Assembly: GCA_037574385.1 (NCBI GenBank)
Contig: GCA_037574385.1_4529.1
Origin: a phage
Direction: 5' to 3' (one strand)
Length of the DNA: 64,000 nucleotides
A program made the translations under genes and the position numbers. Below the pieces are notes generated by a model, which was given only the letters and a program-made list of their open reading frames with translations, did not search any database and had not been told where the DNA came from. Below, in pieces: positions 6,562-7,932 of this stretch. Positions within the stretch are counted from its first letter, which is position 1; the number at the start of each line of letters is the position of its first letter.

Positions 6562-6602
6562 TTTATTCTCCAGATGTTTAAGTTGTTTGTTGGTACAGGT
6601 CT

Positions 6603-7045: not shown

Positions 7046-7075
7046 TATAGTAACACATCCTACAGGAGAGTAAAC
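7046..7075 (-). promoter_or_regulatory. Early promoter module (PeSL-like)
   Basis: GTTTAC-N18-TACTAT followed by AGAC and SD. Confidence 0.5.
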
Positions 7076-7110
7076 ATCTTTTTAAACTTTTTCTGCCCTA
7101 AACACACAAA

Positions 7111-7130
7111 AGGGAGACCGAAGTCTCCCT
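7111..7130 (-). terminator. UUCG-tetraloop hairpin (AGGGAGAC-UUCG-GUCUCCCU)
   Basis: Perfect 8-bp stem after the small basic protein gene. Confidence 0.5.
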
Positions 7131-7134
7131 AAAA

Positions 7135-7311
7135 TTATGCAACAACCTTTCCAAAACGAGAAGCATCATCTCGAAGAACTGCACGTGCTCTGCGCATGAT
7201 CTTCTCAACTGTTTGATTAATACGAGAGTTCGACCCACGCTTGTATCCAGCGCGTTTAGAATCACCGACTTTCTTTTCAACTGCTTTCTTTGCTTTAGTT
7301 TGTTTTGCCAT
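7135..7311 (-). CDS. Small lysine/arginine-rich basic protein (58 aa)
   Basis: Hand-called: MAKQTKAKKAVEKKVGDSKRAGYKRGSNSRINQTVEKIMRRARAVLRDDASRFGKVVA; followed by UUCG hairpin. Preferred over overlapping track ORFs 7098..7280(-) and 7213..7398(+). Confidence 0.5.
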   Translation of the reverse strand: MAKQTKAKKAVEKKVGDSKRAGYKRGSNSRINQTVEKIMRRARAVLRDDASRFGKVVA

Positions 7312-7683
7312 TATAAATTCTCTTTAAATGAAAATGCAGGACTTATTGACATTGCCTGCTCAAGCCCTCAAGGGGAACATAGGTTTTTGGATATTTAACG
7401 ACCAGGATAACCATAAACCCGTCATCATACCTTATAGCTCTTATCTGTTGCACACCGTTAGCTTAAAGGTTCCGGGTTCGATTTCTCGAGGATAAGATAT
7501 ATACTGATGGATATATAGGCCTTGAGGCGTACTCCCGATTAGCCATCACCTCGGGGTAGCATGCACTTACCGCTATAAGAACAACATTCAAGAGGTACAC
7601 CGTAAAATTGTCGGGGCGGTACTTCTAAAACATACCGATTCGCAAATCGATAATCAGACAATTCGACGGCTCCTCGATTTAAC

Positions 7684-7932
7684 TTACTTCAGGGTAATAA
7701 CAAAATGACGAACTGCTTTACGAGCTGCTGAAGCCAGAGGCTTAGCATATTTCAATTCATCTTTCTGAGCCAGGATATCACGAAGATCGGCCTGTGCTGG
7801 ATTCAGATGTTTGAAATATCGCAGGATTTCCAGTGCTTCGGCTTCAACATCAATTGACGCGCCGTAGTTTTCGTGGCCATTATTCCATGCATGGCGTTGC
7901 AGTTCAAGAGCGTGTTGTAATTGTTTAATCAT
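7684..7932 (-). CDS. rIII: rIII lysis-inhibition accessory protein
   Basis: 82 aa, same length as T4 rIII; adjacent to gene 31 as in T4. Confidence 0.7.
   Translation of the reverse strand: MIKQLQHALELQRHAWNNGHENYGASIDVEAEALEILRYFKHLNPAQADLRDILAQKDELKYAKPLASAARKAVRHFVITLK

Follow-up and report, generated by a model that had tools for sequence, protein, structure and literature searches.

Is the 58-codon frame that lies immediately downstream of a long noncoding interval in this phage genome a gene, and if it is, what might its product do? The original prediction had read there, without giving a strand, a small and very basic protein that the ORF track of the window (the whole stretch of 64,000 nt analysed here) does not list, and had likened it to internal or histone-like proteins that bind nucleic acids. 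The frame is on the minus strand (Table 1). Its translated product, MAKQTKAKKAVEKKVGDSKRAGYKRGSNSRINQTVEKIMRRARAVLRDDASRFGKVVA, is indeed small (6.49 kDa) and very basic: it has 10 Lys and 8 Arg (31% Lys/Arg) for 5 Asp/Glu, and a computed pI of 11.35. It is also true that the track has no entry for it. The default cut-off of the ORF lister is 60 aa, and in the simplest reading the frame was probably missed because its 58 aa fall below this threshold. We propose, with a probability of about 0.88, that the frame is the ortholog of T4 gene 30.9, i.e., a genuine gene that is the last cistron of a unit carrying rIII, that ends at a terminator of the PeSL type, and that serves an early accessory function.

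Table 1. Features of the 30.9 locus in window coordinates.
Feature	Positions	Strand	Description
rIII, lysis-inhibition accessory protein (upstream cistron)	7684-7932	minus	phrog_1457 match, E=3.6e-42
Untranslated leader, 372 nt	7312-7683	minus	mosaic of structured RNA modules
Module X	7584-7680	minus	compensatory differences between lineages, by eye
Module A, 135 nt	7438-7572	minus	covariation
Module B	7378-7429	minus	covariation
Module C	7361-7378	minus	part of the leader mosaic
Hairpin D	7336-7359	minus	compensatory differences between lineages, by eye
Ribosome-binding region of 30.9	7317-7335	minus	Shine-Dalgarno-like GAG 7322-7320, 8 nt before ATG; read from the sequence
30.9 coding sequence	7135-7311	minus	ATG 7311-7309 to TAA 7137-7135, 58 aa (ORF listing)
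Overlapping 60-aa TTG-start ORF, not a gene	7098-7280	minus	codon score -0.41 bits per codon
Overlapping 61-aa TTG-start ORF, not a gene	7213-7398	plus	codon score -0.21 bits per codon
Intrinsic terminator (predicted)	7101-7130	minus	8-bp stem AGGGAGAC/GUCUCCCU with UUCG loop (7111-7130), U-rich tail UUUGUGUGUU (7101-7110)
T4-type early promoter for 30.8 (predicted)	7047-7075	minus	-35 GTTTAC 7075-7070, 17-nt spacer, -10 TACTAT 7052-7047

A genuine gene among overlapping frames

By its length alone, an ORF of 58 aa is within chance expectation, because the window holds 59 ORFs of 50-70 aa. We scored codon usage with a model trained on the 31 ORFs of the window that have at least 200 aa. The 30.9 frame obtains +0.446 bits per codon, to be compared with a mean of 0.338 for the long genes, and exceeds 97% of the 59 ORFs of 50-70 aa; scores are negative in four of the five other frames at this position. 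Selection was assessed in 23 distinct homologs from viral contigs, which are 60-98% identical. The dN/dS ratio is between 0.12 and 0.48 in 22 of them, and is 0.62 in the near-identical L016. Variable columns are distributed over the three codon positions as 35/28/48, so that third positions vary most. The start of the protein (MAKQ) is conserved, and the sequence upstream of it varies in frame and length among homologs.

The track lists two other ORFs that overlap this frame, and one could argue that the 58-codon frame is open by chance and that one of these ORFs, or none, is the gene. Both are slightly longer than 30.9, and the opposite-strand frames remain open over long stretches in some relatives. 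However, both begin with TTG, both have negative codon scores (Table 1), and neither has a significant family match: the minus-strand ORF matches nothing in PHROG or Pfam, and the plus-strand ORF has no PHROG match and a meaningless Pfam match at E=0.31. Their frames are not consistently open among homologs either. The open stretch shrinks to 23 codons in the frame of the former, the frame of the latter is interrupted in part of the homologs, and the open length of alternative frames falls to 23-35 codons in some of them. Given the purifying selection and the conserved start in the 30.9 frame, the probability of a chance ORF is practically negligible. The 30.9 frame is real, and the two tracked TTG-start ORFs are artefacts. 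The original prediction had already preferred the 58-aa frame over both, and had named codon statistics in favour of a rival frame as what would overturn it; the comparison of the three frames goes the other way, and its preference is borne out by codon usage, by purifying selection and by conservation in around 980 phage records. The evolutionary evidence also argues that gp30.9 is translated, and the gene has its own ribosome-binding site. A real gene hidden by a 60-aa cut-off is thereby recovered and two false ORFs are removed.

An old T4 annotation gives an extended form of the protein, with 97 aa ('11.1 kDa'). We rejected it: the extension is variable in length or absent in relatives, and it overlaps an RNA module with covariation (module B, see below). 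In the window, which differs from T4 in this respect, the extended form is excluded because an in-frame TAA closes the frame 5 codons before the ATG.

Gene 30.9 closes a unit that carries rIII

The DNA between positions 6600 and 8000 is 99.5% identical to that of Shigella phage ESh27 and 98.8% identical to that of Escherichia phage phiC120, both Mosigvirus (Tevenvirinae), and it matches 955 phage records in total. A CDS is annotated at the corresponding position in both phages, with rIII and the gp31 co-chaperonin upstream and 30.8-30.x genes downstream. The protein was found by tblastn in 984 phage records, among them T4, where the match (AF158101.6, 130364-130540, 58 aa) is annotated as '30.9: gp30.9 conserved hypothetical protein'. 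The window protein and T4 gp30.9 (UniProt P17310, phrog_1427) have the same length, the same neighbours (rIII and 30.8) and the same terminator position, and 55 of the 58 residues are identical; the three substitutions in the window are T5 for A and a C-terminal VVA for QKA. In PHROG the window protein matches two families without a known function and no others, phrog_25450 and phrog_1427; the alignment to the latter (E=1.4e-30) pairs residues 1-56 of the protein with positions 11-66 of the 75 in the profile. By this evidence, the window comes from a Mosigvirus-type T-even phage and its 58-aa ORF is orthologous to gene 30.9 of T4. The gene is not new, as the annotations of T4 and of most relatives already list it under the name 30.9, and it is one of the many conserved T-even 'hypotheticals', kept in about a thousand sequenced phages.

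The neighbourhood is also conserved. The downstream neighbour of 30.9 matches phrog_1507, which is assigned to T4 30.8 (PMC11879866 supplement), and the order gp31 - rIII - 30.9 - 30.8 is that of a Mosigvirus-type T-even phage, with 30.9 placed between rIII and 30.8 in the cd-31-rIII-30.x-ligase block. An rIII-like ORF is found 120-416 nt upstream of 30.9 in all 24 loci for which there is upstream sequence, and one also precedes the distant homologs P0072 and P0076. The order rIII-30.9-30.8 is kept even in homologs that were found by profile search alone. The genomic context is recognisably T4-like in four of the five remote-homolog contigs examined. Two remote homologs lie in the full order cd - 31.1 - gp31 - rIII - 30.9 - 30.8 - 30.7 - ligase, a third has a gp31-sized gene on one side and the ligase on the other, with no rIII, and the fourth is on a short contig with genes of the 30.7 and UvsW.1 families. 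A further remote-homolog contig has a DNA ligase just upstream as its sole recognisable context, and one other has no recognisable phage genes.

The 8-bp UUCG hairpin that had been predicted after the 58-aa ORF is present, and begins 4 nt after the stop codon of 30.9. The terminator scan reads it in DNA, from 7130 to 7111, as AGGGAGAC-TTCG-GTCTCCCT, followed by TTTGTGTGTT; five of its eight pairs are G-C. With the exception of L029, every homolog examined has a G+C-rich hairpin and a T-run directly behind the stop codon, and the stems are as different as GGGAGAC/GUCUCCC, GGACUCC/GGAGUCC, GGGAACC/GGUUCCC and GGGGCUCC/GGAGCCCC. Since the sequence of the stem differs between lineages, the terminator is maintained through compensatory change. 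A hairpin followed by a U-run, with its structure kept, is what is expected of an intrinsic (Rho-independent) terminator, and we predict this activity for it. Gene 30.9 is the last cistron of a unit that carries rIII and that is closed by a conserved intrinsic terminator.

The motif GTTTAC recurs after the terminator, at varying distances, in most homologs. In the window it forms the -35 element of a putative T4-type early promoter for 30.8, which the sigma-70 scan did not list because only 8 of the 12 consensus positions match. This arrangement is that of the PeSL cassettes (Arbiol et al. 2010, PMC2839356; Comeau et al. 2014, PMC4122927), for which the consensus of the PST/T4 pair is TTTACW-N17-TAYWAT (PMC4122927). 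The window has in common with them the stem-loop, of the AGNA-loop-TCNT type, and the T-run (7101-7110), which are followed within about 30 nt by TTTACT (7074-7069) and then TACTAT. The spacer of the predicted promoter is 16 nt when the -35 element is read as TTTACT and 17 nt when it is read as GTTTAC. The UUCG hairpin thus belongs to a type of element that has been described before, a stem-loop combined with an early promoter (PeSL). The cassette is predicted to end the rIII-30.9 unit and to start the 30.8 unit.

A mosaic of structured RNAs between rIII and 30.9

The interval between rIII and 30.9 measures 372 nt in the window and 244 nt in T4, and it is longer in the window because of an extra RNA module (module A). 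Among relatives it ranges from 120 to 416 nt, and the modules listed in Table 1 can be present, absent or reordered. The shuffled order suggests that they are independent cassettes.

Module A occurs once per genome in 407 phage records and is absent from T4 and many others. RNAalifold predicts for it six helices with a total of 38 pairs, and double compensatory changes occur in 16 of these pairs. In total, 97.4% of the cells are paired, as against 30-41% when the partners are slid by 1-3 columns, and none of 500 shuffles reaches the observed covariation. The G-U pairs place the RNA on the strand of the gene. ESh27 has an annotated CDS of 45 aa in this place, against which the module's indels of 1, 2 and 7 nt argue. 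The module has an invariant 20-mer, GCTAAYGGTGTGCAACAGAT, for which 185,579 species genomes of bacteria and archaea gave no match; its occurrences are confined to viral contigs whose size is T4-like (about 93-178 kb). The most conserved 14-mer has no match in the searchable literature, and a search of Rfam 15 at E<=10 returned no family in the leader and three weak matches elsewhere that we regard as noise.

All 25 leaders compared contain module B, which in most lineages fits an H-type pseudoknot, with 81% of the cells paired as against 29-56% after sliding, and its covariation score is 0.39, compared with 0.17 for shuffles (0 of 500 reach it). In the copies of the T4 and window types the second helix does not fit. 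The conserved AUGAUG of this module could open a frame for a small peptide, but we rejected this reading, as several lineages have a shortened frame or no start codon. ARAGORN found no tRNA, despite a T-arm-like sequence on the plus strand (GGTTCGATT).

Close to the gene, the Shine-Dalgarno (SD) sequence can pair with an upstream anti-SD in the window leader (AUUUUC / GAGAAU), forming a weak hairpin of 6 bp. A mini-hairpin between SD and anti-SD is found in most of the 21 distinct leaders folded, with another sequence in most relatives (UCUCC...GGAAGA), and the SD is unpaired about 50% of the time in the folding ensemble. The hairpin may have a regulatory role.

These structures invite the explanation that gp30.9 is an arginine-rich RNA-binding protein that regulates its own synthesis from the leader (through the pseudoknot, module B, or module A), as gp32 does in T4. 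It would account for 120-416 nt of covarying RNA structure before the gene in the enterobacterial T-even relatives, for the ubiquity of module B in the leaders compared, and for an SD that can be sequestered. Yet the leaders of distant homologs are of 29-141 nt and consist of a promoter and a ribosome-binding site, with no module that we could recognise by eye; module A is absent from T4 and from many other phages; and the order of the modules is shuffled. Autoregulation is therefore improbable in our view. The fact that remote homologs have short leaders without modules indicates that the leader RNAs are not obligatory partners of gp30.9. A broader version, in which gp30.9 and the structured leader would be a functional pair, the protein binding either ribosomal RNA structures or the covarying modules in the transcript of rIII and 30.9 and module A being an undescribed regulatory or effector RNA of T4-like phages, also seems quite unlikely. 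What the evidence establishes is the RNA structure of the leader, and not its link with the protein. The leader, and especially module A, deserves a follow-up of its own, as it contains at least one well-supported structured RNA without an Rfam family, and in this it is of more immediate value than the protein gene.

Architecture, expression and possible targets of gp30.9

The AlphaFold2 model computed from the family alignment has an overall mean pLDDT of 69, and consists of an unstructured arm rich in Lys/Arg (residues 1-28) followed by a helix (residues 29-53, with block-mean pLDDT of about 76-90). The arm itself has two parts. Residues 1-17, rich in Lys, Ala and Val, are the least conserved of the protein and are shortened in several homologs. 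Residues 18-31 (SKRAGYKRxSNxRI) are almost invariant although predicted to be disordered, and include the invariant motif S18-K-R-A-x-Y-K-(R)-x-S-N-x-R30. Seventeen columns are invariant in 30 sequences, including S18, K19, R20, A21, Y23, K24, S27, N28, R30, R41, R43, A44, V45 and R47. In the sequence and in the model, the helix has a hydrophobic stripe (I31, V35, I38, M39, A42, V45, L46, F53) opposite an arginine face, and its core RxRAVxR is invariant (RRARAVLR in the window). The window protein thus has the core of the gp30.9 family, i.e., SKRAxYK(R)xSNxR and RxRAVxR. Remote homologs (P0067-P0079) retain the N-terminal motif, and their helix core is RxARKAL.

We searched for relatives beyond this family. 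No Pfam-A or NCBIfam family matches the protein at E<=1, hence none of the HU, IHF or H-NS families does, and the models place it in neither HU/IHF, H-NS nor Fis. A single-sequence search of the PDB (query without Met1) gave no relative, and with the family profile the only similarity was one of 25 residues with a helix of SlmA, a nucleoid-occlusion factor, at E=0.19-3. We take it as chance, because it is not significant and SlmA is absent from the results of our profile search of representative proteins. In the latter, a profile of 30 family members was compared with 1.84 billion representative proteins and gave 17 matches, of which one is a repetitive false positive of 617 aa and the rest are small proteins or fragments of 20 residues. 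In those that are full-length, SKRAGYKRxSNxR[IV] precedes a helix of the QL.R.ARKAL type. No cellular homologs were found among the 1.84 billion representatives. Together with the genomic contexts, these searches indicate that the family is specific to phages and did not arise by capture of a histone-like or ribosomal protein of the host.

Data on expression come from T4. In a time-resolved transcriptome and proteome, 30.9 is of the early class (Class_Tx), and its protein is undetected (Class_P = NA; PMC9697503 Table S2). That shotgun proteomics misses the protein is to be expected, since a tryptic digest leaves only one peptide of at least 7 residues. In a dCas13d CRISPRi-ART screen its knock-down scores 0.04 (p=0.26, 'Not Fit'), compared with 4.12 for the adjoining gene 31 (PMC11879866 supplement). 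The lack of a measurable fitness cost indicates that 30.9 is accessory and not structural. By orthology, the mRNA of the window gene would also be of the early class and the gene would also be dispensable in the laboratory. Just upstream of 30.9 we saw by eye neither a T4 late promoter (TATAAATA) nor a MotA box, and the sigma-70 scan of the leader returned nothing. The remote homologs P0070, P0074 and P0076 are monocistronic, with a promoter, the gene and a strong terminator directly downstream, and their promoters are close to the sigma-70 consensus (TTGACC-N17-TATAAT, TTGACT-N17-TAATAT and TTGACA-N17-TATTAT, respectively). The early transcript, the dispensability and the promoters of remote homologs point to an early accessory function, not to a virion component. 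Wide conservation combined with dispensability in the laboratory is typical of host-takeover or host-range factors. Our literature searches found no functional study of gp30.9, and the HIDEN-SEQ preprint does not mention 30.9. The sole dedicated paper is that of Driukas and Nivinskas (Biologija, 2003; cited in PMC9409239), which reportedly deals with the expression of rIII and 30.9 and would also support translation.

These results bear directly on the original suggestion of an internal or histone-like protein. Such a protein would be packaged in the head, where it would coat or condense the phage DNA, or would be injected with it. The extreme basicity and the Lys/Ala-rich N-terminal tail, similar to the tails of the H1 type, are in favour of this reading, and since the protein was not detected in the shotgun proteome that dataset is silent on its location. 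The resemblance turned out to be one of composition. The protein is small and basic, like IPI, IPII and IPIII of T4 and like HU, IHF and H-NS, but it has no homology to any of them (PHROG and Pfam for the T4 internal proteins), and the profile search of 1.84 billion representatives returned only small phage proteins that belong to the gp30.9 family itself. phrog_1427 carries no function label, and so nothing marks it as a family of internal head proteins. Genes for head components are expressed late, whereas the T4 transcript of 30.9 is early and distant homologs have sigma-70 promoters of the early type. gp30.9 is not known to be among the catalogued contents of the T4 head (IPI-III, Alt, peptides II and VII). 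No part of the protein varies more than the N-terminus, and this argues against a conserved capsid-targeting or prohead-protease cleavage site. We consider a packaged protein very unlikely.

We tentatively favour, at somewhat less than even odds, an alternative based on charge, disorder and the pattern of conservation, in which gp30.9 binds a nucleic acid or a ribonucleoprotein such as the ribosome. Made early in infection, it would bind a polyanionic target. The variable Lys/Ala-rich tail (residues 1-17) would provide unspecific electrostatic affinity, the invariant extended segment (residues 18-31) would make specific contacts and fold on binding, and the amphipathic helix, with one hydrophobic and one Arg face, might dimerise or dock onto a partner. 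Binders with an arginine-rich motif or a basic arm (e.g., lambda N or the extensions of ribosomal proteins) also have a short, disordered and basic segment, expected to fold on binding, with a helix after it. The analogy is confined to architecture; in sequence, gp30.9 is not homologous to any of these families.

An amphipathic helix with this positive charge might just as well attach to an acidic protein or to a membrane. The protein could then act through contacts with an acidic host protein (e.g., a defence or division factor), with the inner membrane or with the holin-RIII complex, possibly as an accessory of lysis timing beside rIII. The hydrophobic face of the helix opposite its Arg face is consistent with this, as is an invariant short motif in a disordered segment, which is typical of linear docking motifs. 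The presence of rIII upstream in the 24 close relatives and in distant homologs would also fit, and RIII binds the holin and ribosomal protein S1 (PMC9409239). On the other hand, homologs persist where no adjoining rIII was called, the knock-down gives no signal on plaque fitness, and no search suggests a partner, the similarity with the SlmA helix (E=0.19) being not significant. We thus regard action through protein or membrane contacts as unlikely, and keep the binding of nucleic acid or ribonucleoprotein as the tentative reading. In either case, the defined motif SKRAGYKRxSNxRI and the architecture of a single helix make gp30.9 a cheap target for binding studies.

RNA modules of the rIII-30.9 leader

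The rIII-30.9 leader, i.e., the untranslated stretch between rIII and 30.9, is composed of several structured RNA segments. One of these segments, module A, is a multi-helix RNA of 135 nt whose pairing is accompanied by covariation: compensatory double changes were found in 16 of the 38 predicted pairs, and 97% of the alignment cells are paired vs 30-41% in slid controls. In most genomes, a short additional helix (CUUAUAG/CUAUAAG in the window) closes module A off on its flanks. We found it as a single-copy element in 407 phage records; it is absent from T4 and from the 185k bacterial and archaeal genomes searched, and no Rfam family matched it at E<=10.

All the leaders that were compared contain module B, an element of about 52 nt. 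Its sequence in most lineages agrees with an H-type pseudoknot, with covariation, in which the first helix (P1) is AUGxx/x'x'CGU and the second (P2) pairs the loop UUGUUGG with a downstream CCAACGG. P2 does not fit the copies of the window and of T4, where the pairing GGUUUAUGG/CCAAAAACC may be an alternative to it.

Two further elements, module X (a long-range helix around a UGCG-loop hairpin) and hairpin D, were compared by eye, and both show compensatory differences at this level of comparison. The stem of module X is UAUCGAUU/AAUCGGUA in the window vs UAAUGAUU/AAUCAUUA in T4, and the stem of hairpin D (GCAGG-CAAUGUCAAUAAGU-CCUGC) becomes ACUGG/CCAGU in two relatives with a similar loop.

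Features of the leader and of its surroundings (window coordinates unless indicated)
Feature	Coordinates	Strand	Basis or remark
Module X	7584-7680	minus	By-eye comparison
Module A	7438-7572	minus	Predicted pairing and covariation
Module B	7378-7429	minus	Leader comparison and covariation
Hairpin D	7336-7359	minus	By-eye comparison
45-aa CDS annotated in ESh27	7463-7600 (L001 3362-3499)	minus (window)	Overlies module A
PeSL-type cassette	7047-7130	minus	Terminator after 30.9 and GTTTAC-N17-TACTAT promoter for 30.8

An annotated CDS and a composite cassette

In ESh27, the closest GenBank record, a Phanotate call with a GTG start is annotated as a 'hypothetical protein' (URY13936.1). This CDS is very probably spurious, because homologous copies of module A differ from one another by indels of 1, 2 and 7 nt, which disfavour a real gene.

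The gene 30.9 is followed by a composite terminator/early-promoter cassette of the PeSL type. A role in the modular shuffling of T4-like genomes has been proposed for cassettes of this kind, and the shuffled modules in the adjoining leader may be a further sign of such plasticity.

Likeness and naming of gp30.9 homologs

In gp30.9, the basic protein encoded by 30.9 (window 7135-7311), the helix RINQTVEKIMRRARAVLRDDASRFG (residues 30-54) resembles a helix of SlmA, which acts in nucleoid occlusion in E. coli; the match is non-significant (E=0.19) and we take it as due to chance. The profile search gave one false hit, the repetitive 617-aa protein P0073. Several homologs of 58-68 aa in GenBank and UniRef are named '1,4-alpha-glucan (glycogen) branching enzyme, GH-13-type', an identity that is impossible for such small proteins; the name looks like an automatic misannotation that has spread. 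In P0009 (92 aa, encoded on a 570-nt ENA contig), an N-terminus like that of P-type ATPases (PF00122) is followed by the last 47 residues of gp30.9, probably owing to a chimeric assembly. P0035 is a copy with a frameshift.
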